Positions 4,748 through 51,479 of a DNA stretch of 64,000 nt are shown in pieces. How positions within the stretch are numbered: the stretch's first letter is position 1; each line of letters opens with the position of its first letter. This DNA is from Gemmiger formicilis (lineage in GTDB: Bacteria > Bacillota_I > Bacilli_A > RFN20 > CAG-826). The notes under the pieces were generated by a model, which made no database searches, had not been told where the DNA came from, and worked only from the letters and a program-made list of their open reading frames with translations. Made by a program: the position numbers and the translations under genes. The DNA lies in the NCBI GenBank assembly GCA_963612735.1, contig CAVDWX010000092.1, forward strand, positions 3,439 through 67,438. Reading direction: 5' to 3'.

Positions 4748-4853
4748 ATCTTTATCCTTTCTTTAAAATAAAAGTTTTATATAACATATTGTTTAAAAAA
4801 TTAATGATTAATTGGTTTCAACACCCTTTCTTCATTTTTTCTTCTTACAATAT

Positions 4854-4882
4854 ATTATACAAAACTTTTTTCGATTTGTCAA
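4854..4882 (-). promoter_or_regulatory. sigma70 consensus promoter (TTGACA-17-TATAAT)
   Basis: Minus strand reads tttgacaaatcgaaaaaagttttgtataatat. Confidence 0.7.
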
Positions 4883-4982
4883 ATTTTTTTCTAAAGTTTT
4901 ACTCAGCACTGATAAAATGAAATAAAATTAGTTCAAATTTAATACTATTTTTCTTTCTCATCAAGCGCTTGGTGTTTTTGGT

Positions 4983-5500: not shown

Positions 5501-5506
5501 CTCCGC

Positions 5507-8368: not shown

Positions 8369-8374
8369 TGTAAC

Positions 8375-8415
8375 TAGACTAAAGTCAAAAAAGGCGCAGG
8401 AAAATTTCCTTCCCG
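8375..8415 (-). terminator. rho-independent terminator candidate
   Basis: Hairpin aggaaattttcct inside a GC clamp, followed on the minus strand by CTTTTTTGAC. Confidence 0.4.
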
Positions 8416-8419
8416 GCGC

Positions 8420-8623
8420 TTAATTTTCTTCTTCTTCTCTGCGGCGACCATTCCAATACTCAAGCACTGGATCGGCAGTTGGCAAGTAGTGAACTATCTT
8501 AGGTTGCCAAGCAGTGATTTTTTCGCCGCTATTGATCTTGTGATTCTTAGAACAACATGAGAAACTGGTTGTTCCAATCAAAAGAATTAGTAAACCTATT
8601 AATGTTCTTTTTAATCTAAACAT
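8420..8623 (-). CDS. small secreted protein / putative lipoprotein
   Basis: Signal-peptide-like N-terminus MFRLKRTLIGLLILLIGTTSFSCCS. Confidence 0.45.
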   Translation of the reverse strand: MFRLKRTLIGLLILLIGTTSFSCCSKNHKINSGEKITAWQPKIVHYLPTADPVLEYWNGRRREEEEN

Positions 8624-8625
8624 AA

Positions 8626-9042
8626 TTATGATAATTGCTCCTCAATTTTTAATTTTGTATCATTCATTTTTGCGACACCTGTTAAATTATCAGCCCGAGT
8701 AATTGTTACAGAGTCATCTTTAAAGATAGGTTGTGTAATACTTGGTTGATATATAGCTGGTTTGCTGGTGCCACCTATACCACTAGCCCAATTATCATTG
8801 ATAGTAATAGTATTGGCACGTCAAGTTTCTATAAATTTATTGCATTTTAACTGTATTTTAAAATTTTCTAAATCAGATAAGGTTGTTTCTTTCTCGTTCA
8901 TATCTTTGATAAAGGCTTGAAATTTTGATTGATATTTACATACTTCATAATGTACGCATAATGTACATTTTACTGGTTCAATAATAGCCGATAATTGTTG
9001 AACATCGCTATTGTTGTTGTTATTATTTTTCTTCGTTGCCAT
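8626..9042 (-). CDS. hypothetical protein (TGA read-through)
   Basis: ORF 8821..9042 continues through TGA to the TAA at 8626. Confidence 0.4.
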
Positions 9043-12345: not shown

Positions 12346-13692
12346 CTAAATCCCATAAGGATTTATTTGATAGCGACGCAATAAGTCTTCCAACACTGGC
12401 CATGATATCACTAATAACCCATCACGAGCACGAGTCATCGCAACATAAGCCACATTTAAATCTTCGCTATCTTTAATTGCTGTATCAACAACTACTACAT
12501 TATCATATTCCAAACCTTTTGCTTGGTGAATAGTTGTTGTATTAATCCAACCTAATTCTTGTATACCCTTAACTTGTTTATTGGTTCTACATAAAATCAT
12601 TGGATTGGTTTGTTTTAAAAAATCGTATACTGCTTGAATTGGTTGTTGTAACATTACCACTTGGTTACCATTCACTATCTCCCAACCATTTCTAAAAGGG
12701 TCTATTACTATTACTCGACCGCCTTCTCCGCGATAACAATGAACAGATGAGTAATTACAAAAATCATGTTGTGCGATATAACAATCCCCCCATAGATTAT
12801 TATTTAATTCCTCATAAACGGTAGTAGCATAGTTAATAATTTCTTGATAGCTACGATAATTATATTTTAACTTATAAATGTCAAAGCCTTCTCCAAGTTT
12901 ATTAAATACTTCACCATCAGCCCCGCGGAATTCGTAGATAGATTGCCAACTATCTCCAATAAAGAACTTTTTCTTCGCAAGCACTTTTTCAAATATCTTG
13001 AACTGCACAGAGTCAACATCTTGAAATTCGTCAACAAAAAGAGCGTCAATAGTTGTAATATCTTCCTTGTAAGCCTCTAACATATTATATAAATATAAAG
13101 GATAATCAGTAAAATCATATAAACCATTATTTCTTTTATACATAATATAACGTTCTTCTAATGCATTTAATGTGCGGCGAAAATTATCGGTAATATCCAT
13201 TTTCTTACTACCAGTAATATAAGTATACAATATACCAATATTAACTGATTTCACACGAGCAGTACGTAAATAATTTTCTACTATAAATTCTAGTATACTT
13301 TTAATTTGATTTTCTTGAAGCACTTCTACGGCAAAATGATATTTTCTACCTAAAGCTTCAAGTAAGTTCCGACTCCAAACGTGAATAGTAGTAACCTCTA
13401 CATCAAACACGCCCATTTCTTGAAGTCGTTGTTCCATTTCAGCGCGAGCCGCACGTGTAAAAGTAATAGCACAAATGCGGTCTGCCAAGTTTTCATATCT
13501 ATAATTTGCAACGGCGGAAATTAACGACCGTGTTTTCCCCGACCCCGCGGGCGCTTTAATTAATATATTTGCTCCATCACTTTGAACTGCGGCACTTTGA
13601 CTATCATCTAACTTAGCCAAATTTTCTTGCAGATGCTGTTCAAAGTTGATGTCATTATTTCTTTTTAATGTTAGTTCTTTGTTCATCTGCAT
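12346..13692 (-). CDS. UvrD/Rep/PcrA-family DNA helicase
   Basis: Motif I APAGSGKT and motif Ia ITFTRAARAEM. Confidence 0.75.
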   Translation of the reverse strand: MQMNKELTLKRNNDINFEQHLQENLAKLDDSQSAAVQSDGANILIKAPAGSGKTRSLISAVANYRYENLADRICAITFTRAARAEMEQRLQEMGVFDVEVTTIHVWSRNLLEALGRKYHFAVEVLQENQIKSILEFIVENYLRTARVKSVNIGILYTYITGSKKMDITDNFRRTLNALEERYIMYKRNNGLYDFTDYPLYLYNMLEAYKEDITTIDALFVDEFQDVDSVQFKIFEKVLAKKKFFIGDSWQSIYEFRGADGEVFNKLGEGFDIYKLKYNYRSYQEIINYATTVYEELNNNLWGDCYIAQHDFCNYSSVHCYRGEGGRVIVIDPFRNGWEIVNGNQVVMLQQPIQAVYDFLKQTNPMILCRTNKQVKGIQELGWINTTTIHQAKGLEYDNVVVVDTAIKDSEDLNVAYVAMTRARDGLLVISWPVLEDLLRRYQINPYGI

Positions 13693-16061: not shown

Positions 16062-18845
16062 ATGATTACAATGATTAAGCAAACAAGCAATACTAAAAAG
16101 CTTTCCAATTTTCGTATTTCAACTTATGATGCGAAAATCACCACACCTGATAAAAAAACTGTAGAAATCATATATAATTCCTACGGTGTGCCAAATTTAT
16201 CTGCGGTTGACTTAGGTCTTTACGGAGACCGCAACGTTACGATATTAAAACTTAATTTCAAAGATTTATTATGGAATACGGCAGATGCAACAAATTATCA
16301 GATTAGTTTATTTGTGGATGGAAATAAAGTAGACACTTTTTTTGAAATGGATAATACATATCCTATCGTAACTTATCCTATTGATACAACTTCTCTGACT
16401 GTTGGAACTCATGAATTTGCAGTTTCAATTATGGAAAAGAGTAAAACGAGCGGTTCAAATATTGATATTAATCAAGAAGTATACTTATGCCGTTCTTTTA
16501 ATGGTACGGTTAATGCTAGTGATTTTTATGAAGCAGCCAATACTTTTGATTTTGTTGGCATTTCAAATAAAGGTTTACGTAGACATCAAATAGAAGTAAT
16601 GCTTGCAGATGATGGACAATTTGCATTAAAACAAGCAATAACAAGTGATGAGCAATTTAGCACTGATTTGGGTATGCAATATGACCGTTTTGTTAGTTAC
16701 ATCTGTTTTAATGAATCAAGTGATATCACTGGAAAGGTAACAAATTTAGATAAGTATATTGTTTTTCAAAATTTAGCTTTAAGCACCAATTACTATGTTA
16801 AACTTAATACAACTAGCGGCCATCAACATGAAACAGAAGATACTTTAACAGCATGAGTACCCGCAGAAGTTACGGAAGTTGCCGGAGCTTGAACTATTTA
16901 TTTTGTAGGAGTAAATGAAGACGAGTCAATTAGATTTGTAAGCCGCAGCATCTCATTAACAGTGTTGCCAACAACAATTCCATATGCCGAAGTAAATCCA
17001 GAGCGCGGCATCAATATTCCTGTTACGTTTGAATTATCGTTTTATTACGTATCAACTTCAACAAAAGTCGTCGAAGCTTGTGCCATTTTAAAAGATGAGT
17101 CTTTAAGCGCACTAGCAGAGATTACTAACACAGAGAAAGAAGTTTACTTACGACAAGGTGAAACATATATTCTTGAATTATATCCAGAAGGTGAATGAAG
17201 CTATCAAGGAGGTAAAGTAATCCGAGAATCTAGAATTATTTATACTGTGCCTAAAGACGCAACTGCAGATACTTTTACTGGAACATATGAAATAACCGCT
17301 GAACCACCAATTCAAGAACTAATGATTACACCTACTGAAGAAGACCAAGTTTTTAACAAAGAAGGAATTGATGGTTATAAACCAGTAAATGTTTCAGCAA
17401 TTCAAACAGAAACTCCAAGTGTTGATTTATCTCTTGCAAGTGGAAATCAAACAGTGAATGCTACTAGTGGAAAATATATAAAATCTCTTACTATTAACAA
17501 ACCTAGTACTTTAATTGCAGCAAATATTAAGAAAAGCGTGGTTATTGCAGGAATAACGGGTACTTATGAGTTTAAAACACAAAATAAAACTTTTACACCA
17601 ACTCAAACAGGAGGTTCAGTCAGTGCTGATAGTGGTTATGACGGTTTAGGTGTAGTCGCTGTTAACCCCGTACCACTTAGTAATAAAACAGATGTTTCTT
17701 TAAACTTCTATAATCAAAGTGCTGGAACAATTGCAGATAGTCAAAATATCTATTCTGACGCAAATAAATTCATGACTTGGGCAAGTGTTATTCGTCCTGA
17801 AACTTTGATTGCTGAAAATATTAAAAAAGATATTATAATAGCAGGAATTACAGGAACATTAGTAGGAGAAGATTTACCAGTTTATACAGGATTATTAAGA
17901 TTTAGTACAGCACCTACAATTAGTTTAAGTGGATCAACATTAAGTTGGGAAGCGATAGAGGGAGCAACAAGCTATGATATTTACAAAGACAATGCTCTAT
18001 TAAGCAATGTAACTACAACAAGTGTAGATTTAAGTACGCTAATTACAACAGCTGGCACTTATGCAATTACAGTTAAAGCCAAAGCAAGTAACTATGCTGA
18101 TAGTGAAGCAAGTAATAGTGTTAACTATGTGGTTCCATCAGCGTATAACGTAGTATTACCAAAAGCATATACCAATACTAATGTTTATTGTGCCTATTCA
18201 ATAGATGATGGTGTAACTTGGGTTGAAATGAAAACTGCTACTACAATACAAACTACACAAATTAAATTTAAAAATGTAGGGAACTCGAGCTATCACTATT
18301 CTTTATATTCAACATTGTTAGGAATGACATTATATTATGGCAAAACTTCTCAAAATTACATATTAACTCAAGATATTACAGATATTCAAGTTGATTACTA
18401 CGTTACTTGTTTAACAGGAGATACTCTAATTACAATGGCAGATAATTCACAAAAACAAATTAAAAACGTACAAATTGGCGATTGTGTACTTTCTTTAAAT
18501 GAAAACGGGGAAAAGGTAAGTAGTAAAGTTTATTATTCTGATGCAAATGAATATAAGACAGCATCTTATTATGACTTATTTATATTCTCTGATGGTACGG
18601 AAATCAAAGTAGTTAGAAGGCATAGATTTTATAACAATAGAACGCAAAGTTTTATTCACTTAGATGAATTTGAAGTTGGCGATAAAACTTATAAAGAAGA
18701 TGGAACTTGGGTTGCACTAATAGATAAAAAATACAAAGCAGAAGCAGGAGTTATTCGACATTTTACTATCTTCTGTGAACATAATACATACTTTGCAAAT
18801 GGTTTACTTGCAGGCAATAAATATAGTGATAAATTAATTTTATAA
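16062..18845 (+). CDS. tail fibre-like protein (about 927 aa) with C-terminal intein/Hint module
   Basis: Four ORF pieces share one frame across TGAs. Residues about 785-910, CLTGDTLITMADN...IFCEHN, form a mini-intein-like Hint module ending HN followed by T. Confidence 0.6.
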
Positions 18846-19738: not shown

Positions 19739-20944
19739 ATGAGTATTACATCTGTTTATAAATACACGAACGATAGTTGAGTAAAACTAAAAGCCTTTCA
19801 AGCAACTAGTGATGGAAATTGAAATCAAGTTAGTTCTACTACTACTCCTATAACTAGTACCGTTGATGCCTTTTTAGTAGATAGCGCTACAAATTATGCC
19901 TACTTTACCACTATGCTTGGAGGCGGCAATGGCACTTATACTGCAACCACAACTCTTGGTTCCGTAAGCATTGAAGGCAATGTCTTAGAATTATATGTTT
20001 ACTCTGCCGGAAGTGGTACTTGTACAATTACTTCAGGTGAAGCAACATTAGAAATTCCAATATATGTCGGATATATTGAATGCTTAGTAAAAGATACTCT
20101 AATTACTATGTGAGATCGCACGCAAAAGCCAATTCAAGATATTCGAAATGGCGATTATGTGCTTTCATTAAATGAAAAAGGTGAGGAAGTACCTGGATAC
20201 GTCTATTACGCAGATGGCGATCAATGCAAGACAGGTCAACATTATGACCAATTTACCTTCTCGGATGGCACTGTTGTGAAAGTTGTTCATCGTCATAGGT
20301 TTTACAACAATTTTGATAGAACATTTACTCATCTGGATAATTTTTATATCGGAGATAAATGTTATAAACAAGACGGGACTTGGGTTACTTTGGTAGGAAA
20401 AATTGATCGTGCCGAAGAAGGTATTATTCCTCATTATACAATTTTCTGTAATAATAATACATATTTTGCTAATGGGCTACTTTGCGGTAATCGTTTTAGT
20501 AAAAAGGTAAAATTGATTGATCCAACCATTCCGGCTGAACCTACTTATAGTTGACAACCAGTGGCACGAAAATTTCCAGATGACTTTAAAGTATCAAAAA
20601 TTTGAGTAGACAGTAAAGATAAAGATATTTATATTGAAAAGAACGGTCAAGCGATTAATTATATTCAAACTGACAACAATGAAGCCAAAATGTTTTTATA
20701 TCAATATAATGGTGAAAAAGATTATCATAATATTACTTTAGAAGAATTAGATACAAACGCTGAATTGGTATTAGAAATTACTGAATATGACACGCAATAT
20801 GATATAACCAATTTAATTTATAATTATATTTTATATTATGAATACAAAATAGACCGCATTTCTCCAATAGCAACAATAAGTATTGAGAATGCGGGGGGGG
20901 TGTCAACATTGAGATGAGGAGGCAGCAGTCCTTTAGGAAAATAA
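19739..20944 (+). CDS. tail fibre-like protein with internal intein/Hint module (about 401 aa)
   Basis: Single frame through TGAs. Hint module CLVKDTLITMWDRTQ...IFCNNN, then conserved TYFANGLLCGNRFSKK (paralogous to the C-terminus of 16062..18845), then a further 120-aa C-terminal region. Confidence 0.55.
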
Positions 20945-23007: not shown

Positions 23008-23034
23008 AGAGGCCATTAAGGTCTCTTTTAATTT
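23008..23034 (+). terminator. rho-independent terminator
   Basis: agaggccattaaggtctc hairpin followed by TTTTAATTT, directly after the last plus-strand fibre-block gene. Confidence 0.6.
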
Positions 23035-23127
23035 GGCAGGGGATCCAGGAGTCGAACCCGGTTCGGAGGTTTGGACGCTCCTACGATGATTTTGAAGATC
23101 ACTGGCCAGAACCGTTAGCCCAATCCC
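23034..23127 (-). tRNA. tRNA with anticodon UCA (reads UGA) and long variable arm
   Basis: Minus strand GGGGATTGG-GCTA-ACGGTTC-TGGC-CA-GTGAT-CTTCAAA-ATCAT-[GTAGGAGCGTCCAAACCTCCGAA]-CCGGG-TTCGACT-CCTGG-ATCCCT-G-CCA. The T-loop is TTCGACT, the discriminator is G, CCA is encoded, the anticodon loop is 7 nt with U33 and A37, and the variable arm is about 23 nt. Confidence 0.6.
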
Positions 23128-23162
23128 CTGTAAGGGATGAGTACCTATCGTCGCAAATTAGT

Positions 23163-38694: not shown

Positions 38695-39098
38695 TCTAGT
38701 ACTTCGCCATCTATTTCTTCCCTAAAAGCACACCAAACATCTTCTTCTAAAAAATCACGAATTGCAGGGATTAAGTTAAAAGTAGGTCTTGTCGCTGTAA
38801 AGCGAATATCTTCTACTTGTACATCTACTAATGGTGCTATACCTCGATTTACTCTGATTTCATTAATATCATTAAGACGACCATTATTTTCCCAAATATT
38901 TACTAAATCTTCTTCAGTAAAGAAAGGAATCGATGCACCTTCTTCTACTGGGCGAAAAGTTTTTTGTAAAAATTCATTAAATTTTTCAATATACTCAGCA
39001 TTAAGCTCCATAACATTAATATACTCTACACGTTCAACAGAACGAATTACTAATTGTCTACTCACAATTAATTTCCTCCTTATTTCTTCCAAGGCCAT
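38652..39098 (-). CDS. hypothetical acidic protein immediately downstream of the sigma factor gene
   Basis: 148-aa ORF ending EEEEEPWQ. Its start overlaps the sigma gene stop. Confidence 0.45.
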   Translation of the reverse strand: MALEEIRRKLIVSRQLVIRSVERVEYINVMELNAEYIEKFNEFLQKTFRPVEEGASIPFFTEEDLVNIWENNGRLNDINEIRVNRGIAPLVDVQVEDIRFTATRPTFNLIPAIRDFLEEDVWCAFREEIDGEVLDWEFGMEEEEEPWQ

Positions 39099-39919
39099 GC
39101 TGCCTTTAATTTTTGTAAACTTGCTTTTTCGATTTGTCTAACTCTTTCACGAGTTAAGTTTAATTCAGCTCCAACTTCATCTAAAGTATGAGTTTTTGTC
39201 CAATTAATTGGGTCACCATTTTCAACCTTACCTAAACCCATACGCATTTTAATTACTATTTGTTCACGTGGTTTTAAAACGGTCTTAATTAAATCTTGAA
39301 TTACTTCTTCTTTTTCCTTACGAACTGCAAAATGTTCAGGTGTTTCGCTTCTTGTGTCTGCTTGTAAGTCACTTAAAGTGTCACCATCATCTCCTAATGG
39401 TGTTTCAAGACTTACAGTGTCATAGCGCCAACCTTCCAAGTCAGCAACCTTTTCTACATCGATGCCCATAACTTCTGCGATACGAGCAGGTGTGGCTTTT
39501 CCACCCTTACTTTCTAATTCAGCAATAGTTGCTCTATACTTGTTCAACATTTGATAAATATGAGCGGGAATACGGATAGTTTTTCCGCAATCAGTGATTG
39601 CTTTAGTAATGGCTTGACGAATCCAAGGAGTCGCACAAGTTGAGAAACGATAACCTAAGTCTGGATTGTATTTTTCAACCGCAGTGATTAAACCTAAATT
39701 TCCTTCAGCGATTAAGTCTAACTTTTCCATATGACTGTTTTGATAATTATTTGCAATTGATACAACCAATCTTAAGTTACTATTGATTAATTGTTCTTTC
39801 GCAGCGTGAGCAACTTCAGGGTCTTCGCTTCTCATTTTGTATGCTAATTCTCTTTCTTCATCTGCACTTAATAATTGATATTCACCAATTTCTTTCATAT
39901 ATTTATTTAATGCTGTCAT
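39080..39919 (-). CDS. phage-encoded sigma-70 family RNA polymerase sigma factor
   Basis: Region 2 (LRLVVSIANNYQN...DLIAEGNLGLITAVEKY), region 3 and region 4 (TLDEVGAELNLTRERVRQIEKASLQKLK). Confidence 0.8.
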   Translation of the reverse strand: MTALNKYMKEIGEYQLLSADEERELAYKMRSEDPEVAHAAKEQLINSNLRLVVSIANNYQNSHMEKLDLIAEGNLGLITAVEKYNPDLGYRFSTCATPWIRQAITKAITDCGKTIRIPAHIYQMLNKYRATIAELESKGGKATPARIAEVMGIDVEKVADLEGWRYDTVSLETPLGDDGDTLSDLQADTRSETPEHFAVRKEKEEVIQDLIKTVLKPREQIVIKMRMGLGKVENGDPINWTKTHTLDEVGAELNLTRERVRQIEKASLQKLKAAWPWKK

Positions 39920-41616: not shown

Positions 41617-41645
41617 ATTATACTAAACTTTTTACTCTTTGTCAA
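41617..41645 (-). promoter_or_regulatory. sigma70 consensus promoter
   Basis: cttgacaaagagtaaaaagtttagtataatat on the minus strand. Confidence 0.65.
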
Positions 41646-42264
41646 GTAAATTGTTCACTTTTTCCGGCATCAAGTACTGCGGAGAAATTTTCCATTGGTA
41701 GCAAAATGCATCTGCGCCGGCTGTGAAGTGATACTTGCCATTGCGGGCTAAAAGCCCGTGTTCAAGCATCCAATTACTCATTCGGCTTACATCGCCTTGT
41801 TCACTACCAATAATAGTATGTAGACGTTCAATTCCACCTGCCCATCCGCTATTAAAAATAGTGTCATAGTAAAAGTAGGCGGCAAAAAGTTTAAAATATG
41901 AACCAGCCGTTTGTCTATTGAAGTGAGTTAGCAATAAATCCACCACGCGGTCAAAAGTTTCCATCGGCATTAGAACGATTGATGTATCCACTTGCCAAAT
42001 TATCGGCTCTTTTAAACGTGCGCGCCAACGGCTTAATGATGAGTTAGTTAATTGCATATTAGCGTAACACAGTCTCTTACTGTCGGGCACTATGCGGAAA
42101 CGGCAATCCTTCGGTGCGAAACTACTTTCATATTCAATTGCGGATGCTCGCAAGGCCATCATAAATGTTAAATAATCACGTTTGTATAAAGTCCAGTCGG
42201 TGTCTACGATAGGAAGGTATGGAAGATTGGTTTTGTATTTATAAAAAGTGTTATTAGTGTTCAT
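41632..42264 (-). CDS. hypothetical protein (210 aa)
   Basis: Intact ORF with no strong own promoter. Likely co-transcribed with the upstream structured RNA. Confidence 0.4.
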   Translation of the reverse strand: MNTNNTFYKYKTNLPYLPIVDTDWTLYKRDYLTFMMALRASAIEYESSFAPKDCRFRIVPDSKRLCYANMQLTNSSLSRWRARLKEPIIWQVDTSIVLMPMETFDRVVDLLLTHFNRQTAGSYFKLFAAYFYYDTIFNSGWAGGIERLHTIIGSEQGDVSRMSNWMLEHGLLARNGKYHFTAGADAFCYQWKISPQYLMPEKVNNLLDKE

Positions 42265-42469
42265 AGAAAATCTCCTGTGTTATATTATGTAAACCACAAA
42301 TTGTATTATATAAGATAACAAGGTCATGGACTGCTAGACACATTTTGAAGTTTATTTAATTGTGTTTTCGTGTTATCTTATCTTATTCTTAGTGATATAC
42401 ATTTTCATTTTAATCCGTTTTTGATAAAAAGTCCATTTTGAGTTAAGTAGTTGTTCTGCGTAGCGCGGA

Positions 42470-42720
42470 ACCCCTAGGTGGAGCGCGAGCTACGCATGTA
42501 AGTGATGTTAGCACGGTGCGAGCGCAGCTCAGCAACGACCGCAACGCGGGCGTAGTTCCTTCCTGCGGAGCAAGGAAGGTCGGATGGATACGAAGAGTGC
42601 GGCGGCAGGCGCACTCGTAGTAAAGTGAAGCGAGCCAAGTGTATCGTTCTAATCGTTCGCTCCAATGCTTAGAAGAACGTCAAGGAAGGAAAGACCATAA
42701 ATGGCCTTCCCCCTTAACTA
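42470..42720 (-). ncRNA. GC-rich structured noncoding RNA candidate with two upstream 16-bp direct repeats
   Basis: Multiple strong hairpins: gcgtagc...gctacgc, ccttcctgcggagcaaggaagg, gagtgcggcggcaggcgcactc, ggaaggaaagaccataaatggccttcc. Upstream on the minus strand: tagaatttcacagcgc x2 and a TTGACA -35-like element. The only ORF, 42474..42665, is an artefact. Confidence 0.4.
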
Positions 42721-42785
42721 TCTAAGCAATTCTATCATGTCAAGCGCTGTGAAATTCTAACCATCACATCGGGCGCTGTGAAATT

Positions 42786-43235
42786 CTAGCCATTGGCGCC
42801 GCTGGCTTCCTTCGTCTTCAAACGGCTTATCACCTTTGCGCGCTTTTCTGCCATCAATGCGGCCTTAGCAGCCGCCTCAGCCTCACGAGCCTTTGCCTTT
42901 GCAGCCTTACTTGCTACTTCATCATCGTAAGCATTTGCCGCCTCAAATGGGTCGTAATCAAGTGCCTTGATAGTATTTTTTAGTTCTCAGCTAATTGTAT
43001 AACCGGTAGCTTCATTTTCAATAACGAAAACAATACCTTCCTTCGTCACTAAAATATCTACTTCATCACCATACATCTGCTTGAGGTCATCTACCAAGGC
43101 AGCGACTCCTTCGGCGCGTCATTGATTACGGGCTGTTTGTTGAATGGTTTCGGTGCCATTAGCAGTGATATTGGTTGGTAGGGCACCTAACGAAGCTATT
43201 TGGCGGCAAAAAGACGTAAACTTTAATTCATTCAT
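42786..43235 (-). CDS. hypothetical protein (149 aa, Ala/Lys-rich C-terminus)
   Basis: Hand-translated single frame MNELKFTSFCRQIASLGALPTNITANGTETIQQTARNQWRAEGVAALVDDLKQMYGDEVDILVTKEGIVFVIENEATGYTISWELKNTIKALDYDPFEAANAYDDEVASKAAKAKAREAEAAAKAALMAEKRAKVISRLKTKEASGANG with two TGA=Trp codons. RBS aggagaa. Confidence 0.5.
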
Positions 43236-43315: not shown

Positions 43316-43585
43316 CTATAGATAAAATTTCTTACCGCTATGTTTAGCTCCGCAAGTAGGACAAACATCTTCGTATTCCTCAACATTTACGTTAATTACT
43401 TCGATGTCACCTGCTTCAAGAATACCATCTGCTACCTTTTTAGCTTTAGTACGGATGCTAGTCATTGTACCAGCTGCGATACCAAGTTCCTTTAAAGTTA
43501 AATGTTCTCCTCTGTTAGCTTTTAAAGCTTCGATTGCTGCAAGTTCTTTTTCAGTGTAACTTAAAACTGTTTGTTTGTTTGCCAT
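43316..43585 (-). CDS. small winged-helix-like DNA-binding protein with C-terminal zinc ribbon (paralog family member)
   Basis: LTLKELGIAAGTMTSIRTKAKKVADGILEAGDI resembles the recognition region of the other three paralogs. Ends CPTCGAKHSGK. Confidence 0.45.
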   Translation of the reverse strand: MANKQTVLSYTEKELAAIEALKANRGEHLTLKELGIAAGTMTSIRTKAKKVADGILEAGDIEVINVNVEEYEDVCPTCGAKHSGKKFYL

Positions 43586-43587
43586 AG

Positions 43588-43899
43588 TTATTTGTCTTCC
43601 TTTCTATTAATCATTTGATAATCCGTATTTGGCGTCACGGATGGGCTTATCTGAATTAGCCATTCCCCTGACTCATTCAAACTCGCTGTTATAGAAGGAG
43701 CAGTAAGGCCATCAGGAGAAACCACCACTACGGATGCCGATGGTTTGAATCGTTTAAGAATTTGAATAAGTTGTTTGTTTGTCATAGTACTAACTAACAT
43801 ACTATCATATTGTCTCCCTCCTATAACGTTTTGAGGATATTTAGTTCGCTCCTCATAGCTAAGTCGAGGATAAGGTAGGGACCTCGGCTTACTTATCAA
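43588..43899 (-). CDS. hypothetical protein (start ambiguous; the shorter form MLVSTMTNK from about 43800 has RBS GGAGGGAG)
   Basis: ORF in GC-rich leader context. Confidence 0.35.
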   Translation of the reverse strand: MISKPRSLPYPRLSYEERTKYPQNVIGGRQYDSMLVSTMTNKQLIQILKRFKPSASVVVVSPDGLTAPSITASLNESGEWLIQISPSVTPNTDYQMINRKEDK

Positions 43900-44225
43900 G
43901 AGGCAAGGATTTACGTGGACTAATCACGACCTTGCTAGTGTAGACTTGCTATCTCGAAGTGCTTCACTACTACTCCGGTGGTAACCCCACAATTGCTCCA
44001 CTGGTTTGTCGACGTGGGGTAAGGCGGTATGGTCGTAAGTGACCTAACTCGTCAATTGAAATCAATGCAATAACTCCGAAGATGTTTATCGCTCGAAATT
44101 AACTTCCAATTGCTCGCTTCTAGTAAGAGCTAACTGCGCGTTCTCGCCGCTGACTCACGAATGGTATCTTATCGGTCATACCATTAGACCGTGACGATAA
44201 GACTTGAAGATTATCTTAACTTATC
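43810..44225 (-). promoter_or_regulatory. roughly 400-nt GC-elevated structured 5' leader / candidate ncRNA
   Basis: Lies between the promoter at 44243..44271 and the gene at 43588.. Inverted repeat aatggtatgaccgataagataccatt and long-range ccccac...gtgggg pairing. Confidence 0.35.
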
Positions 44226-44242
44226 TTATCATTTACATAAAT

Positions 44243-44271
44243 AGTATACTAAAAGTTTGGCGTTTTGTCAA
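44243..44271 (-). promoter_or_regulatory. sigma70 promoter (TTGACA-17-TATACT)
   Basis: cttgacaaaacgccaaacttttagtatact on the minus strand. Confidence 0.6.
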
Positions 44272-44293
44272 GAAATTTTTTCTAATTCTCGCC

Positions 44294-44785
44294 TTATTCA
44301 GCATCACGTGCGGCTAAGGCATAAGTACCAACCTTTTTCTTAACTGTACAAGGCACTTCAACTTCACCAGCCACGGTTACATTTCCTTTTGTAACTAAGC
44401 CATTGACGTTTCCGCTGATAAGTGGCTTGCCAACTAATTCACTAAGTTGAGCTAGTGTAAGCGGCTCTGCGGCGTCCTTTAATGCAACTAGAATGCTTTT
44501 TTCGGCATCTGTGTAATTGCATACTTTGCCAGTTGCAGGATTAGTTTGAACGGCATCAGTGACTAGTTGATACACTTTATTTGAACGCTTAGAAGCGACT
44601 TCCGCTGCCACTTGTCCGGCGTTGTAAATAAGTCCACGCTTAATTAAACCAGAGATGTGACCGGGAGTGATAGCTACGCCGGCACGTTCGTTTAATTCAG
44701 CAATAGTAAGCGGTCTATCAGATGCGGCCAAAACTTCTAATACGGCCTTTGCAGATTCAGTTAATGGTGTTAAATTTTTACTCAT
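44294..44785 (-). CDS. tandem double winged-helix DNA-binding protein (paralog family member)
   Basis: Two repeats: PLTIAELNERAGVAITPGHISGLIKRGLIYN and PLTLAQLSELVGKPLISGNVNGLVTKGNVTV. Confidence 0.5.
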   Translation of the reverse strand: MSKNLTPLTESAKAVLEVLAASDRPLTIAELNERAGVAITPGHISGLIKRGLIYNAGQVAAEVASKRSNKVYQLVTDAVQTNPATGKVCNYTDAEKSILVALKDAAEPLTLAQLSELVGKPLISGNVNGLVTKGNVTVAGEVEVPCTVKKKVGTYALAARDAE

Positions 44786-44862
44786 AATAATTTTTCTCCT
44801 TCTGGCGACTCTTGGCTCGCCTGACCAAATTTAATTTTTTTCTTATCTTTAATTACAATAAT

Positions 44863-44891
44863 ATTATACTAAATGATTAGCAATTTGTCAA
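44863..44891 (-). promoter_or_regulatory. sigma70 consensus promoter
   Basis: cttgacaaattgctaatcatttagtataatat on the minus strand. Confidence 0.65.
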
Positions 44892-44924
44892 GAAAATCGC
44901 TCCATTAATTGTTAAATTTTTCGG

Positions 44925-45020
44925 ACGGCAAGTAGAATATGAATTAAGGAGGTAACATATGAAGCGCCGTCCGCAGTAAGAAGATTTTCTTTTAAGGTTC
45001 TTTTATCATCTTTCTTACAA
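44925..45020 (-). ncRNA. short promoter-proximal RNA candidate with two stem-loops (contains a 6-codon plus-strand mini-ORF with strong RBS)
   Basis: Downstream of the promoter at 45025..45053 and upstream of the next promoter. Stems gtaagaaag/cttcttac and gcggacggc/gccgtccg. The plus strand has aaggaggtaacatATGAAGCGCCGTCCGCAGTAA. Confidence 0.25.
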
Positions 45021-45024
45021 TAAT

Positions 45025-45053
45025 ATTATACTAAATGATTGACGTTTTGTCAA
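45025..45053 (-). promoter_or_regulatory. sigma70 consensus promoter
   Basis: cttgacaaaacgtcaatcatttagtataatat on the minus strand. Confidence 0.65.
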
Positions 45054-45212
45054 GAAATTTGTTCGGCAAATGAAAAATTTTTGCGCGACGAACTAAAACC
45101 AAAGACGTCATAGGCTCACTTCAATAGCCGCGCAGATAAAATTGCTGCCGGGAAATGCGCAGATTACTGCCAAACGCTCCAAGAAGGTGCCGGCAAACCG
45201 CGCCCAATCATG

Positions 45213-45290
45213 TGAATCCTATGACAACATAAATTTTAAATCAACATAAATTTTAAATCAACATAAATTTTAAATCAACATAAATTTTAA
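45213..45290. repeat. 17-bp tandem direct repeat x4.5 (aacataaattttaaatc)
   Basis: catgtgaatcctatgacAACATAAATTTTAAATCAACATAAATTTTAAATCAACATAAATTTTAAATCAACATAAATTTTAAATCCacg. Confidence 0.85.
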
Positions 45291-45685
45291 ATCCACGTAG
45301 GCCTATAACTTTGTTGCTGCTGCTCAACTTTATGAAAACGTTTTCATTGCCCTATGCTGAATGTAGATAGCATAAGTACTATTAACTAGCCCGAGTACCA
45401 TTGCCAAGCAACCTTTGGAATGTTACTTCTACATCTGCAAAAAGTGAGCAAATGGCTTGACAAGATGTGGAAAATGTGCTATAATATTATTATAGCTGCT
45501 GCTGCTAATAAGTATCACACTGACCTAGGCACCACAAGTTTGCGGCGCCCCGCCCTCTCCGGCGTCCGGGCATATTTTGTAAACGCTTTCATTTTAATGT
45601 AAACGCTTTCATCGTATGCTTTAATTATGAAAACGTTTTCATAACCATCCTTCCGTCTGCCTCTTACATATGTGCAAAAAGAGAC

Positions 45686-45976
45686 TTATTCAGTCTCTTT
45701 CACTAATGTATATGCCTTAACAGTATTAGTCTTTTCGCCGATTTTGACACCTTTAAAATATACATCGCATACTATTTTGGTGTCTTCAGATATTACTAAA
45801 CCACGCTTTACTAAGGCAGTTACCACGCCACTAGCATATCTAATGCCAGTATCTACTTCAATTTCCATTAAAGTAACAGGATAATTATATCCCTCTAAGA
45901 CAGTTAAGAACGCTTTTTGATTGTCATTTGGTTTCCATACTTTTTCATTTTTGTTTACATTTATTGTTTTCATCAT
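45686..45976 (-). CDS. small winged-helix DNA-binding protein (paralog family member; candidate regulator flanked by palindromic sites)
   Basis: NQKAFLTVLEGYNYPVTLMEIEVDTGIRYASGVVTALVKRGLVI closely parallels 48292..48594. Confidence 0.55.
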   Translation of the reverse strand: MMKTINVNKNEKVWKPNDNQKAFLTVLEGYNYPVTLMEIEVDTGIRYASGVVTALVKRGLVISEDTKIVCDVYFKGVKIGEKTNTVKAYTLVKETE

Positions 45977-46016
45977 TTTAAATTACCTTTTACCTTTCTT
46001 TTTTATTTACACTAAT

Positions 46017-46045
46017 ATTATATCATAGTTTGGTGGCAAAGTCAA
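46017..46045 (-). promoter_or_regulatory. sigma70 promoter (TTGACT-17-TATAAT), class B (-10 context tgaTATAATatta)
   Basis: cttgactttgccaccaaactatgatataatatt on the minus strand. Confidence 0.6.
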
Positions 46046-46552
46046 GAAAAATGTTCTAAAATTTTTATTTTCTTTTTTTCATAAAATTCCTTTTCCTATC
46101 ACCTAACTACAATAATATTATACCACAAAAAGCTCAACTTGTCAACCCATAAACTTATGAAAACGTTTTCCTATCTTTAAGACTTGCTATTCTTGCTGCT
46201 GTAAAAAAATGAAAGCGCTTTCATCTTGCTGCTGCTGCTTTTTCATAAAATGAAAACGTTTTCACGCCGTCGCCACGCGGGCGCGGCATATATATCAAAA
46301 ATTTATGGCTTTATGGTTATATGTATATACATATTTATGTATTGGACATCCGATTTTTGCGTCGAAAAAGGCAGACGGAAGTGAAAAAATCTCCTAAAAC
46401 ATATTAAATTTTAGGAGAAAACGTGAAAAAAGTAAGCGAAAACGTGCAGTTTTAAGTAAAAATGTTGCTGCTGCTGCTTCAAAAATGTTAAAAAGGTGGG
46501 AGAAAGGGGAGGGATAGGAGGGGAAAGGCAGACGGAAGTGGCGAGCAAATTG

Positions 46553-46581
46553 GTTGACAAAGGGAAAGAAAGGGTGTATAA
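46553..46581 (+). promoter_or_regulatory. plus-strand sigma70 consensus promoter inside the control region (antisense to early genes)
   Basis: TTGACAaagggaaagaaagggtgTATAAT with GGCAGACGGAAGTGG 13 nt upstream. A second TTGACA follows at 46601. Confidence 0.5.
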
Positions 46582-46639
46582 TGGCAGACGGAAATGGCAC
46601 TTGACAAAACGGAAATTTCCGTCTACGCAGACGGAAAGG

Positions 46640-46668
46640 GTAAAATAAAAAAGGTCCACTAGGGACCT
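46640..46668 (-). terminator. rho-independent terminator
   Basis: Minus strand ggtccctagtggacc followed by TTTTTTATTTTACC. Confidence 0.6.
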
Positions 46669-46858
46669 GAACCTGTCACGTAGGTATCTTACGACCCGTT
46701 CTTAAGGCAAATGTAGTTTTAGCCAATTATCTTTATTAAGGCAAACAATTAAACCCGATTTATTTTGGTGAAATCTTCCCCTATTTTTGAACGATGAATA
46801 GTAACGTTTGTCCTTTTGTTGAGGATTGGACGTAGCCCCAACCTTTAATTATATTAAT

Positions 46859-46887
46859 ATTATATCATATTTATTTAACTTTGTCAA
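46859..46887 (-). promoter_or_regulatory. class B sigma70 promoter with upstream CAGACGGAAG element; no ORF before the terminator at 46640 (about 200-nt noncoding transcript)
   Basis: cttgacaaagttaaataaatatgatataatatt on the minus strand, with aatcagacggaagtaaac 16 nt upstream of the -35. Confidence 0.55.
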
Positions 46888-46914
46888 GAGAAAGATTGTT
46901 TACTTCCGTCTGAT

Positions 46915-47382
46915 TTATTTTTCTATCATACCAAAATATTTTTCTTGAGTCCAACCATTCCAACCGAATGTCAACAAATATTTTCGATAATGTCTATAAT
47001 TACTATATTCATAACTTTCAGTTTGATAAGAAGAGCCATTACGTATTAAACCATTACATTTCCAACCTAATTCTTTTAGAGTATTTTCAATTTGATTTGG
47101 GGAATATTTGTTATCAAGCTCTATGAAGCCATCAAGTTTTTCTTTGGCTTGATTAATTTTTGTTTGAATATATTCTTTTAAATCTTCTTCCATTATTTCT
47201 TTTTCACATTCAGCAAGTAAAATTAAAGCTCTGTTTTTGGCAATTTCCATTCCTATTAATTCATTAAACTTATCTTGTGGACTACATACAGCAATACCCT
47301 TTAATTCGCATTTGCCTACTTTAATAGTAGCAACAACCTTTCTTTCTTCTTTTAAAATTTGATAACTAATTTGTTTTTCCAT
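46915..47382 (-). CDS. hypothetical protein (155 aa)
   Basis: Intact ORF. Confidence 0.45.
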   Translation of the reverse strand: MEKQISYQILKEERKVVATIKVGKCELKGIAVCSPQDKFNELIGMEIAKNRALILLAECEKEIMEEDLKEYIQTKINQAKEKLDGFIELDNKYSPNQIENTLKELGWKCNGLIRNGSSYQTESYEYSNYRHYRKYLLTFGWNGWTQEKYFGMIEK

Positions 47383-47419
47383 TTTTCTAACCTACCTTTT
47401 CTTTTTTATTTACATTAAT

Positions 47420-47448
47420 ATTATATCATATTTTAATATTCTTGTCAA
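47420..47448 (-). promoter_or_regulatory. class B sigma70 promoter with upstream CAGACGGACAAGG element
   Basis: cttgacaagaatattaaaatatgatataatattaa on the minus strand. Confidence 0.6.
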
Positions 47449-47480
47449 GTATTTTAACTACCTTGTCCGTCTGAGACCGC

Positions 47481-48251
47481 TTACCCTTTATAGGTAATAC
47501 GGTCACCACGAACGAATGATTTCTTATAATCAAACTCTACAACATTTCCGTCTGGCAATACTATCACTTGGTGGAACACTTTTTCAGATGCAACTCTTTT
47601 TGCCTTCGGTAATGCTCTAGTTATGTCGGCGTTTCTTCTAATGCATTCTAATAATATTTCCGTCTCCCATTGCACATCACTTAATGCGGTGTGGTCTTCT
47701 TCAAACTCTTTATTATTAAATAAGTATCTTACTACGCTCTCAACTGTGCTACTAATATAAAAGCCCGTTGCGGTGAACTCTTCCGTCTGAGTCGCCCACT
47801 CTTTATATTCCTTTGTATTAATAATAAATTCATATGCATACGCCCAAATATCAAATATTGGTAGTCCTTCTAAAGGGTTTGCAATCCCTAATCCGTCTGC
47901 TGTGCGTTTGAATTTGTCAACATCAAAGTCACAGTTATATGCATAGCCAAATAATACATTATATTTTTTAATATCGTTTGTCATAGTAGTAAATACTTGC
48001 TTGATATTTCTTAATGTTATCATTCCGTCTGCCACCAACTTATCATACTTGGTTAGTTTGTTTGCACCTACAAAATCATCATTAAGCATATAAATACGAT
48101 TATTATATAAATCTCTTACCAAATAATCTCTAGCCACTAGTACTTTTCCGTCTGCATGTTGAATATTTATATCAACGATTTTATAACCCACATTTAATAA
48201 GTCTTGACTAACTTTTCCAACTGTTTCAGTATCAAATATTATTACGTTCAT
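47481..48251 (-). CDS. DnaQ-like DEDDh 3'-5' exonuclease
   Basis: Exo I VIIFDTETVGK and Exo III HTALSDVQ. Contains seven co-oriented GCAGACGG-type motif copies at about 100-130 bp spacing, mostly as Ala-Asp-Gly codons. Confidence 0.7.
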   Translation of the reverse strand: MNVIIFDTETVGKVSQDLLNVGYKIVDINIQHADGKVLVARDYLVRDLYNNRIYMLNDDFVGANKLTKYDKLVADGMITLRNIKQVFTTMTNDIKKYNVLFGYAYNCDFDVDKFKRTADGLGIANPLEGLPIFDIWAYAYEFIINTKEYKEWATQTEEFTATGFYISSTVESVVRYLFNNKEFEEDHTALSDVQWETEILLECIRRNADITRALPKAKRVASEKVFHQVIVLPDGNVVEFDYKKSFVRGDRITYKG

Positions 48252-48291
48252 AGTCTTCTCTCCGTCTGCCCGCTTGGGGTTGGGTGCCGAT

Positions 48292-48594
48292 TTACTCGGC
48301 TACCCTTTCAAGATTTGCTAAACTATATTTTTTTACGTGGTCGGTTTTGTGTCCGATAATTGTATCACGATAAACGATATTACTAATTCGGTCAACTTCC
48401 GTTGCTACAATAAGACCACGACCCATTAAAGCGGTCATTACACCAGTTGCAACTTTTACGCCAGTATCAATTTCGATATCTATTAGCATTGCTCCGTCTG
48501 GGTAATTCTTTAGAATTTCTAAAACTTTTGCTTGATTTTCGTTTGGGGCCCATTCCTTTTTAGTTGTTGTTGTTTTTTTGATTTCTTTTGCCAT
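48292..48594 (-). CDS. small winged-helix DNA-binding protein (paralog family member)
   Basis: NQAKVLEILKNYPDGAMLIDIEIDTGVKVATGVMTALMGRGLIV. Confidence 0.55.
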   Translation of the reverse strand: MAKEIKKTTTTKKEWAPNENQAKVLEILKNYPDGAMLIDIEIDTGVKVATGVMTALMGRGLIVATEVDRISNIVYRDTIIGHKTDHVKKYSLANLERVAE

Positions 48595-48599
48595 AATTT

Positions 48600-49215
48600 T
48601 TTACCTACCTTTACTTAAATTTTTTAATGGCTTGGCTACCATTTACATAAATATTATATCATATTTACGTTTATATGTCAAGGGCTTTTGCTTATCTTTT
48701 CCGTCTGCCAATTTTCTTACTTGGCATACCATTGATTAAGTTTATTACCACTTTACACCTAATATTATACATCTTTTAAAGCCATTTGTCAAGGCTTTTA
48801 CTTCCCTTTTCCGTCTGCCGGTCAAGGTTGGTATAGGTGGTTTTTGTTTCGGGATGACCACCAACCCCATATTTATTTTACACTAATATTATATCACATT
48901 TATTTATTTTTGTCAAGCGTTTTATTTTTGCTTTCCGTCTGCCGCCTTTGTGGCTGCTAAACCTTTCTTTTATATAAATATTATATCATAAATAAATTAA
49001 TATGTCAAGCACTTAACTTATCGGCGTCCGTCTGCCTTTGGGTTTAGGCCATTGTGATGTCTATTTAACTCTTGCACTAATATTATACACCTTTTGCATT
49101 TGAAAGTCAAGCAATAAAACTTGCCATTTCCGTCTGCTTCTCTTCTCTTCCGTCTGCGGTAGACGGATAACAAGGCCAACATTTTTTCTTTCCGTCTACC
49201 CTTTTCGGGCGAAGG
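48600..49215 (-). repeat. tandem array of five roughly 105-bp promoter units, each [GCAGACGGAA element]-N13-16-[TTGACA]-N17-[tgaTATAATatta]
   Basis: -10/-35 pairs at 48652..48680, 48764..48792, 48888..48916, 48980..49008 and 49082..49110, each preceded by ggcagacgga(a/c). No ORF separates the units. Three more motif copies in both orientations at 49128-49200. Confidence 0.7.
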
Positions 49216-49218
49216 GGT

Positions 49219-49491
49219 TTATTCCCCTTCTTCATCGTCTTCTAAGCATTCGTCCCAAAAGTCATCTTCGTCATCGTCGTCATCTTCATACCAAGCGTGG
49301 CTTCCGTCTGCTTCGATGTCTTCTGCTTCGGCAATACTTAGAAAACCTTCATAATCGTCTTCAAAACTTGATAATGCTCTCGTTTCAATTTCTTCAACAC
49401 TCATACTTTCTAGTCTTTCGCCGTCTTCTAATTCAATGACAACACTTCCGTCTAATGTAATTTTTAATGGAACTCTTACTAATTTACTCAT
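49219..49491 (-). CDS. hyper-acidic small protein (candidate DNA mimic)
   Basis: 90 aa, ends YEDDDDDEDDFWDECLEDDEEGE. About 40 percent D/E overall. Confidence 0.45.
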   Translation of the reverse strand: MSKLVRVPLKITLDGSVVIELEDGERLESMSVEEIETRALSSFEDDYEGFLSIAEAEDIEADGSHAWYEDDDDDEDDFWDECLEDDEEGE

Positions 49492-49530
49492 AATTTTTTA
49501 CCTACCTTTTCTTTTTTTATTTACACTAAT

Positions 49531-49560
49531 ATTATATCATACTTACATATCACTTGTCAA
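49531..49560 (-). promoter_or_regulatory. class B sigma70 promoter with upstream GGCAGACGGGAAA element
   Basis: cttgacaagtgatatgtaagtatgatataatatta on the minus strand. Confidence 0.6.
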
Positions 49561-49588
49561 GCCTTACGCTTTGTTTTTTCCCGTCTGC

Positions 49589-49804
49589 CTAGTTTTGCCA
49601 TTCACCTTCTAAATCAAAGTATAAACTGCCCAACCATTCACCATTAAGACTATATATTCTTAATTCTTGACCTATTGAAAATCTTTTTACATCATATTCA
49701 ACATCAAGTCTTTTTAATTGTTCTTGAATTTTTTCTAAATCAGTCATTCTCTTTTTCTCCTTTCCGTCTGCTAAGCAAACCATAATATAAACACGTTTAA
49801 GCAT
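49589..49804 (-). CDS. hypothetical small protein
   Basis: Intact 71-aa ORF. Confidence 0.35.
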   Translation of the reverse strand: MLKRVYIMVCLADGKEKKRMTDLEKIQEQLKRLDVEYDVKRFSIGQELRIYSLNGEWLGSLYFDLEGEWQN

Positions 49805-50025
49805 ATTCCCGCTAAATGCATAGCAATTCCATTTATATGCCTATCAGTTGCAAAGTCTTTAATTAACCCTAAACTTGCAATAACTAAACCAAACACCGCA
49901 CCAACATTAAACCCCACAAACACAATCAAACCTACATTAATTAGTTGTAAAATGGCTCTAATATCGTTCATTTCAAACTTGTATCTTTGTTCTATCTTAA
50001 AAAATCTTTTTACCAACTCTTTCAT
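49771..50025 (-). CDS. small two-TM membrane protein
   Basis: LIVFVGFNVGAVFGLVIASLGLI and LAGICLNVFILWFA hydrophobic segments. Confidence 0.4.
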   Translation of the reverse strand: MKELVKRFFKIEQRYKFEMNDIRAILQLINVGLIVFVGFNVGAVFGLVIASLGLIKDFATDRHINGIAMHLAGICLNVFILWFA

Positions 50026-50069
50026 AATTTAGTCCTTTCCGTCTGCCGGTGGTAGTGATAGGTCAGTGC

Positions 50070-50585
50070 CTACCACTCAAACCATCCGTCTGGGTATATT
50101 TCCCCTATATGTTCTATAAGTGGCTTTACTATTTTTATGCTTTTACCTTTGCCACTTGCTATCCATTCCCTACAATTTTTGCCGTAATCATCTAATAATA
50201 TGCCTCCTTTAGTTTTTGCATAATCGGCTTTATTTTTACCAACTCTCATTATTATGATATGGCTTTTTTTAATTTGTGGATAGTGATATTTTAGCCATTC
50301 CCTTTTATCCCTATCCGCTTGTTTATTGGGGCTTGCGGATAGAATATATAAATTTATATATGGGCTTTTTAATAGACTTTCAAAGCCTTCTTGATTAATT
50401 GGTTTAAGTTTTTTAAAGAAGCCTTTTTCAGTTTTAAAGCGTTCAAGTGCATTAATTTGTCCACCAAAGTCAGCAATAACGCCATCCATATCGCAATATA
50501 CATTTATTTTTAAACCCTTATAAAGGCTTTTTAAGTTTCTTTCTTTAACTAGTTTCTTATATTGTTTAGTCAATTTTTTATTCAT
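50070..50585 (-). CDS. 5'(3')-deoxyribonucleotidase (NT5C-like HAD phosphatase)
   Basis: HAD motif I CDMDGVIADF identical in pattern to the NT5C family DMDGVLADF. Confidence 0.65.
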   Translation of the reverse strand: MNKKLTKQYKKLVKERNLKSLYKGLKINVYCDMDGVIADFGGQINALERFKTEKGFFKKLKPINQEGFESLLKSPYINLYILSASPNKQADRDKREWLKYHYPQIKKSHIIIMRVGKNKADYAKTKGGILLDDYGKNCREWIASGKGKSIKIVKPLIEHIGEIYPDGWFEW

Positions 50586-51412: not shown

Positions 51413-51479
51413 ATACCACAAATAAAATAATAAGTCAATAGAAAAACAAAAAATCTTTTATGAAAACGTTTTCATTTTA

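Follow-up and report, generated by a model that had tools for sequence, protein, structure and literature searches.

Analysis of a 64-kb stretch of phage DNA (GenBank contig CAVDWX010000092.1, positions 3,439 to 67,438 of the forward strand, here called the window) revealed four small genes encoding putative winged-helix proteins, designated D, C, B, and A. The window has a low GC content (~33%) and contains genes for a large terminase, a portal protein, helicases, a ligase, and a topoisomerase. The terminase shows 33% identity to the terminase of Geobacillus virus E3 and to SPbeta-type YonF proteins, and genes of the YonB, YonD, YonG, and YorF types are present in the contigs of relatives. 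The source of the window is an uncultivated large phage of the virulent type with SPbeta-type structural genes. The four genes are positioned in a leftward block (- strand) between the structural module, which begins at ~53.5 kb on the + strand, and a gene encoding a phage sigma-70-family factor (39080-39919). An earlier reading of the sequence (the original prediction) had described the four products as a family of paralogous winged-helix regulators. All four open reading frames (ORFs) were found, each on the - strand, as follows.

48292..48594, - strand: paralogue D, 100 amino acids, one winged-helix domain, long beta-hairpin wing; first gene downstream of an array of five promoters

45686..45976, - strand: paralogue C, 96 amino acids, a single winged-helix domain; palindromes resembling the catabolite-responsive element (cre) on both sides

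44294..44785, - strand: paralogue B, 163 amino acids, two tandem winged-helix domains (residues ~1-82 and 83-163) forming a covalent pseudo-dimer

43316..43585, - strand: paralogue A, 89 amino acids, divergent; helix-turn-helix core (helices H1 to H3) kept, C-terminal half different, with a CPTC motif

Homology among the four proteins was assessed by pairwise BLASTP. Proteins C and D share 39.5% identity over 81 amino acids (E value of 1e-23), and B matched C and D with E values of 5e-8 and 4e-5, respectively. The two halves of B are 32% identical over 66 amino acids (E value of 1e-12), which bears out the tandem duplication proposed for this gene. Protein A is 30% identical to the C-terminal half of B over 63 amino acids (E value of 5e-5), and its comparisons with C and D were not significant. 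The proposed homology was thus recovered by pairwise alignment for B, C, and D and for A with the C-terminal half of B, but not for the pairs A-C and A-D.

A deep profile-profile comparison was based on an alignment of 61 diverse tandem relatives. In this comparison, the C/D family matched the halves of the tandem family at 98%, and the N-terminal and C-terminal halves of the tandem family matched each other at 99.8%. The A family matched the two halves at 96.6% and 96.3%, but over only ~45 columns that cover H1 to H3. Shallow family alignments linked A to the second domain of B alone (hhalign, 80%), and A versus C/D reached only 2 to 3%. A hidden Markov model (HMM) built from the four domains of B, C, and D, with A left out, ranked A first among 670 other ORFs of the window (E value of 0.005, residues 6-70). 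When the HMM of the A family was run against all ORFs of related loci, B-type proteins were the sole matches; in L012, a deep-branching relative used for between-clade comparison, both domains of the B-type protein were matched (full E value of 2.9e-10). Protein A has a 6-residue deletion before H3 and a tail with the CPTC motif, and it is missing the ALVKRGL segment, so that part of the core motif ascribed to all four proteins is absent from A. The deep profile matches and the recognition of B-type proteins by the A-family HMM indicate that A is a true but divergent family member. Translation of the window with genetic code 11 or code 4 revealed no additional paralogue. The C terminus of a 210-amino-acid ORF (41632-42264) resembles H3 by eye; paralogy of this ORF was not detectable.

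Searches for relatives revealed a family confined to unnamed proteins. At the DNA level, 50,697 isolate phages contained no close relative of the window, and a tblastn search of isolate phages, with B, C, and a remote tandem relative as queries, gave no significant match. A relative of the family was not found in the 185,579 species genomes of GTDB, and this search therefore yielded neither a prophage nor a clue to the host. IMG/VR contained a single contig with a relative, which is near-identical, and ~100 close cluster representatives, none of them with a name, were found in metagenomes. An exhaustive HMMER scan of 1.84 billion representatives retrieved 264 proteins at an E value of ≤0.001, mostly tandem forms of ~165 amino acids, and the tandem form is the commonest architecture across the wider family. 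A description of the family was not found in the literature.

The gene order is constant in every long related contig: D, an exonuclease-like gene of 254 to 256 amino acids, C, a long noncoding gap, B, a gap, an ORF of 65 to 67 amino acids together with A, and the sigma factor gene. Orthologues of D, C, B, and A are present in the same order at every related locus, down to 28 to 54% identity. The orthologues in L012 show identities of 28% (D), 37% (C), 29% (B), and 54% (A); between clades, A is therefore the best conserved of the four paralogues. The noncoding gaps around B are large and are kept in relatives. Because the order and orthology of C and D are maintained down to L012, the sequence comparison indicates that C and D are old orthologous groups, each separately conserved, and not recent duplicates.

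Structural models were generated with AlphaFold2. The model of D, based on 24 homologues, has a predicted local distance difference test (pLDDT) score of ~90 through residues 20-90 and comprises H1, a short strand S1, H2, H3, and a beta hairpin of 14 to 15 residues. The model of B, based on 61 homologues (pLDDT of 92.8, predicted template modeling score of 0.67), consists of two such winged-helix domains. The winged helix-turn-helix (wHTH) topology H1-S1-H2-H3-S2-wing-S3 is present in D and in both domains of B, in agreement with the fold originally proposed, and the structural similarity to solved winged-helix domains is significant. The same fold is predicted for C from its identity to D. 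Analysis with Pfam gave a match of B to HTH_IclR (28.5 bits, above the 22-bit cutoff) and gave no match for C, D, or A. Across the 61 tandem relatives, the matches were to generic wHTH models (HTH_IclR, 27; MarR_2, 13; HTH_20, 13; HTH_24, 9), and 26 of the 61 matched phrog_1123, which has no assigned function. Sequence searches of the PDB with the C/D profile, the tandem-family profile, and the B sequence alone gave no significant match, and a fold search of BFVD revealed no analogue of the tandem form.

Comparison with named wHTH families supported membership in none of them. The suggestion that they are MarR-like could not be sustained for the MarR family proper, whose members have ~140 to 150 amino acids and N- and C-terminal dimerization helices; the proteins studied here have 89 to 100 amino acids or form a bare tandem, their models contain no flanking helices, and MarR_2 scored 24.5 bits, under the 27-bit cutoff. 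In contrast to wHTH regulators of the MarR, IclR, ArsR, and Fur types, the family has neither flanking dimerization helices nor a ligand or effector domain, occurs as single domains or as a head-to-tail fusion, and has very long wing strands (14 to 22 residues); C, D, and A fall outside every Pfam family, and the relatives are all unnamed metagenomic proteins. With ScpB/KITE proteins, the tandem winged-helix partners of kleisins, only one domain aligns; a profile match to SMC_ScpB and a superposition of both domains were not obtained (sub-threshold in Pfam, E value of 1.1 in the PDB profile search), and no kleisin or SMC gene was seen nearby. The N-terminal domain of T4 MotA was the best PDB match of the tandem profile, yet its E value of 0.06 is not significant. 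Plasmid initiators of the Rep_3 type (WH1-WH2, ~230 to 320 amino acids) gave no such Pfam match for B, with its 163 amino acids, or for the 61 relatives. The four proteins thus belong to a new, deeply conserved, and previously unnamed family within the winged-helix superfamily, of an ordinary kind. Across the wide family, the wing tips are conserved as basic (K66 R67 K68; K149-K151), Lys pairs occur at the end of H3, and H3 of the second domain (SG.IN.LVKKGN) is conserved. Among 18 ORFs scanned in the early region, these proteins are the only ones with a recognizable DNA-binding fold besides the sigma factor.

Analysis of the DNA around the four genes revealed the following elements.

48653..49110, - strand: five tandem D promoters, TTGAC(A/T)-N17-TATAAT, sigma-A-type consensus, upstream of D

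46017..46145, - strand: two C promoters (12/12 and 11/12 consensus matches)

44863..45053, - strand: two B promoters, duplicated, aaatttcTTGACAaa class, GACGGAA element absent

44243..44271, - strand: promoter TTGACA-N17-TATACT, most probably serving a small ORF and A

~43588..43800, - strand: the small ORF, ~70 amino acids (65 to 67 amino acids in relatives), which stops 2 nucleotides (nt) before the start codon of A

45652..50092, - strand: array of ~30 (G)CAGACGGA(A) elements in the same orientation as the early genes; many of the copies are located in coding sequence

46373-46635, + strand: reversed GACGGAA cluster

46157..46265: three cre-like palindromes upstream of C, starting at 46157, 46209, and 46250

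45332..45642: four cre-like palindromes downstream of C, starting at 45332, 45577, 45597, and 45627

51460-51475: cre-like box away from C

45225..45293: four perfect, iteron-like 17-bp direct repeats between C and B (4.1 x 17 bp, 100% identity)

Each of the four genes had been credited with a strong promoter of its own. This was found for D, which is the paralogue located directly downstream of the five-promoter array, and for C and B with two promoters each, but not for A, whose nearest promoter (44243-44271) lies ~650 nt upstream. Since the small ORF adjoins A and is conserved in relatives, the two genes form a unit in which A comes second and which most probably uses the small-ORF promoter. 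In each of the five D promoters, GCAGACGGA(A/C) is positioned 16 to 17 nt ahead of the -35 hexamer, and a cre-like box is located 6 nt upstream of the -35 hexamer of the distal C promoter. A second class comprises the promoters for B and for the A unit, which share the aaatttcTTGACAaa signature and a common spacer and lack GACGGAA. Two full-consensus promoters directed against the early genes were also observed (45457-45485 and 46554-46582, + strand), antisense to C and to the region upstream of C.

The motif CAGACGGA occurs 25 times compared to 0.5 expected, and 24 of these occurrences are located in 45652-50092. The conserved core is GACGGAA, which is extended to GCAGACGGAA in the window and in near relatives. 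L012 has the same layout, with ~30 forward copies of C(C/G)GACGGAAA (2624-7111) followed by a reversed cluster (7537-7891) and with the variant flank CCGACGGAAA. The distance from the element to the -35 hexamer downstream fell into three ranges only in the six genomes compared: 6 to 7, 16 to 18, and 37 to 39 nt, that is, in steps of 10 and ~20 bp; none near 27 was seen. These gap classes reflect helical phasing, which identifies GACGGAA as a promoter-tied protein site on DNA. At the antisense promoters of the reversed clusters, the element is located 4 to 5 nt after the -10 hexamer of a consensus promoter. Many copies lie in coding sequence, where they are read in two frames (ADG/PDG or QTE/ETE); the element is therefore conserved as DNA on top of the coding sequence.

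The original prediction regarded GCAGACGGAA as the operator of one of the paralogues. This assignment conflicts with the relative L010, in which D, C, B, and A are all kept, essentially no GACGGAA element is present, and the D gene has one promoter with a cre-like box ahead of it. No paralogue is therefore obligatorily tied to the GCAGACGGAA array. The GACGGAA core is nearly constant between the window clade and L012, and its constancy over so deep a divergence makes a host factor as plausible a binder as a phage factor. Covariation between protein and motif across clades was uninformative because the core hardly changes and the paralogues persist where the array is lost.

The palindrome ATGAAAACGTTTTCAT is present in seven copies flanking C (8 matches in the window versus 1.6 expected), in line with the claim that one paralogue is surrounded by palindromes. 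The boxes were compared to the cre consensus of CcpA, WTGNNARCGNWWWCAW, and to its high-affinity form, TGAAAGCGCTTTCA (PMC3463425). ATGAAAACGTTTTCAT agrees with WTGNNARCGNWWWCAW, an element of catabolite control in Firmicutes, at every specified position, and the variants fit as well; the box at 46209-46224 contains the exact published high-affinity core TGAAAGCGCTTTCA. Variation among the boxes of the window and the 12 boxes of L012 is confined to positions where cre is degenerate. The pattern TG...CG...CA is invariant in all seven boxes around C and in all 12 of L012. An invariant central CG is typical of LacI-family proteins, which contact it through hinge helices, and not of winged-helix dimers. 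Because of the cre-consensus fit, the matching degeneracy, and the invariant central CG, the palindromes are probably bound by host CcpA or another LacI-type protein rather than by C, and their proposed role as operators of the paralogue family was not supported.

An alternative explanation is that C, most plausibly as a homodimer, binds ATGAAAACGTTTTCAT as its own operators and autoregulates, with another paralogue binding GCAGACGGAA. In every clade examined, palindromes border the C orthologue; in L012, boxes are located at 7700-9011, and nine palindromes occur in the 350 bp downstream of C. Palindromes accompany the C/D/B set wherever it occurs, and L011, whose only family gene is A-like, has none. 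Moreover, an operator of 16 bp is of ordinary length for a dimer of winged-helix proteins, and no LacI-type gene was found in the window, although this was a weak test. We nevertheless consider this explanation unlikely, as, by our own estimate, a palindrome of random sequence has a chance of ~1e-3 of fitting the cre consensus, the boxes vary only where cre varies, the central CG points to the LacI family, and L010 keeps all paralogues while the GCAGACGGAA array is gone. Compared to cellular operons, which usually have one or two cre boxes, the phages carry arrays of 7 to 12 boxes around one small gene; arrays of cre sites in a phage genome were not found in the literature. These arrays suggest a phage of the lytic type that senses the carbon state of its host or titrates CcpA. 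Short (GCA)n/(TGC)n tracts were observed beside the cre-like boxes in the window (45311-45324, 45490-45503, 46226-46239, and 46462-46475) and likewise in L012 (7930-8110 and 9100-9140).

The direct repeats between C and B are specific to each clade. The relative L003 has 3.3 x 17 bp of another sequence (10726-10781), L010 has 2.6 x 16 bp and 3.3 x 16 bp (13136-13176 and 13401-13453), and no clear iteron array was found in the C-B gap of L012. These repeats raise the question of whether B binds them in the manner of a plasmid Rep protein on iterons, at a replication origin or partition-like site, with the single-domain paralogues as accessory or architectural proteins. Like the Rep initiators RepA of pPS10, RepE of F, and pi of R6K, B has two winged-helix domains per chain, and a direct-repeat array lies beside its gene, although this is a resemblance only. 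The repeats are perfect tandem copies whose sequence differs among the window, L003, and L010, and fast covariation of repeats with a neighboring gene is typical of iteron-initiator pairs; the conserved large gaps around B and the prevalence of the tandem form would also fit. However, B is approximately half the size of Rep initiators and has no Rep_3-type match, the repeat period of 16 to 17 bp is below the usual 19 to 22 bp, L012 lacks a clear array, and no replication gene adjoins the repeats in the window. An origin role is accordingly hypothetical, and we regard it as improbable.

The genetic code bears on the timing of expression. In this phage, TGA is a sense codon that probably specifies Trp. 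When TGA is treated as sense, the total length of ORFs above 150 amino acids rises from 35 kb to 53 kb. The ORF at 42786-43235 (- strand) has two in-frame TGA codons, at positions conserved in two relatives, and 0 TGG codons. A tRNA with the anticodon UCA and a long variable arm is encoded at 23034-23129 (- strand). An ORF resembling a GIY-YIG homing endonuclease (3669-4562, - strand), which matches the I-TevI catalytic domain with an E value of 4e-10, contains in-frame TGA codons, and TGA is aligned with a conserved Trp of I-TevI. The called leftward genes from ~51.2 to 37.7 kb use TGG and have no in-frame TGA, with the ORF at 42786-43235 as the sole exception. The genes for D, C, B, and A likewise have no in-frame TGA and end with TAA or TAG. 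Their translation can therefore begin without waiting for a suppressor tRNA, in keeping with early expression.

Taken at face value, these observations are consistent with D, C, B, and A acting as early phage regulators that time early transcription via sites in the 43.9- to 49.2-kb region. We give this interpretation an even chance and regard it as the best of those considered. It is favored by the homology and fold of the proteins, the basic residues conserved at the wing tips and the end of H3, the deep synteny, the consensus promoters, the absence of in-frame TGA, the phasing of the GACGGAA elements, and the lack of any other recognizable DNA-binding protein besides the sigma factor among the 18 scanned ORFs. 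The host sigma-A RNA polymerase would read the four early genes from the consensus promoters, and the products would bind in a sequence-specific manner to the phage's own early control region and thereby time early transcription. The products may shut off the very strong early promoters by feedback or activate them, and they might also control the C-B intergenic region with its iteron-like repeats. Candidate sites are the phased GACGGAA elements ahead of early promoters and, at antisense promoters, directly behind the -10 hexamer, the clade-specific perfect repeats of 16 to 17 bp beside B, and the spacer and -35 flank common to the B and A promoters; binding of these sites by family proteins instead of a host factor is presumed. 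Host CcpA on the cre-like palindromes could supply a carbon-status input to the C promoters. Since B is fused and tandem forms dominate the wider family, a pair of domains is probably the working unit, in which case D and C would function as dimers.

A functional analogy is provided by p4 of phage phi29. This early protein binds DNA upstream of strong promoters of the sigma-A type and can act on them as a repressor and as an activator. Like p4, the proteins described here are small early proteins, and GACGGAA is located at a fixed helical phase upstream of strong promoters. The fold of p4 differs from theirs, and its binding sites are inverted repeats, whereas binding is only predicted for the proteins described here.

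Several points weigh against an early regulatory role. DNA binding by the four proteins is a prediction from the basic residues conserved at the wing tips and from the Lys pairs; H3 of C and D contains few basic residues, and the isoelectric points of the proteins (6.1 to 8.6) are close to neutrality. The conserved H3 of the second domain fits a common partner or DNA feature better than diversified operators. The L010 locus encodes all four proteins without the GACGGAA array, and a constant GACGGAA core next to paralogues that are only 28 to 54% identical would also fit a conserved host factor. Finally, the N-terminal domain of T4 MotA, the best if nonsignificant PDB match, binds sigma and not DNA. 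The proteins might instead be host-directed takeover proteins, with host DNA, the sigma factor of RNA polymerase (as for MotA), or a kleisin (with B as an ScpB-like mimic) as the target. We consider this explanation improbable.

An extended form of the regulatory interpretation combines the elements in a combinatorial switch: one or more of the paralogues would read GACGGAA to turn the immediate-early operon off and later units on, the CcpA arrays would gate the process by carbon state, and the genes with TGA codons would await the suppressor tRNA. This model is speculative, and we rate it well below the simpler early regulatory role. If true, it would represent a three-layer timing device of a kind not described for any phage.

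By itself, the family adds more uncharacterized winged-helix proteins, which are ordinary for a phage early region; its value derives from the context. Together with the sigma factor, the four proteins are the only recognizable regulators in a control region rich in conserved cis-elements, namely, phased GACGGAA sites, cre arrays, clade-specific iterons, and two promoter classes, in a TGA-recoded lineage of gut-type phages from which none has been cultured. With four small proteins that are easy to purify and 6 kb of DNA, the region offers a compact system for early gene timing in this lineage, and the same system could show whether a lytic phage senses the catabolite state of its host through CcpA.

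Additional features were observed in the window. Within the control region, a consensus promoter (46859-46887, - strand) is followed by ~200 nt without an ORF and then by two terminator-like hairpins (46652-46668 and 46616-46637); the segment 46660-46887 is a possible small RNA, and its fold was no better than that of shuffled sequences. A GC-richer noncoding stretch of 521 nt at 42265-42785 (- strand) folds far better than shuffled sequences (z score of -4.8, compared to -2.0 for the + strand) and is a candidate structured RNA without an Rfam match; an Rfam scan of 42.2 to 47.0 kb revealed no credible family. Just upstream of the five-promoter array, an early protein of 90 amino acids with an extremely acidic tail (DDDDDEDDFWDECLEDDEEGE) is encoded at 49219-49491 (- strand) and could be of the DNA-mimic or anti-restriction type. 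A Hint/intein-like segment, C[LV].[GK]DTLITM...HRHRFYNN...HNTYFANGLL.GN, is common to two large neighboring ORFs, defined with TGA as a sense codon, at ~18400-18842 and ~20100-20500 (both + strand); this suggests intein-like or self-cleaving domains in tail-fiber-like proteins.

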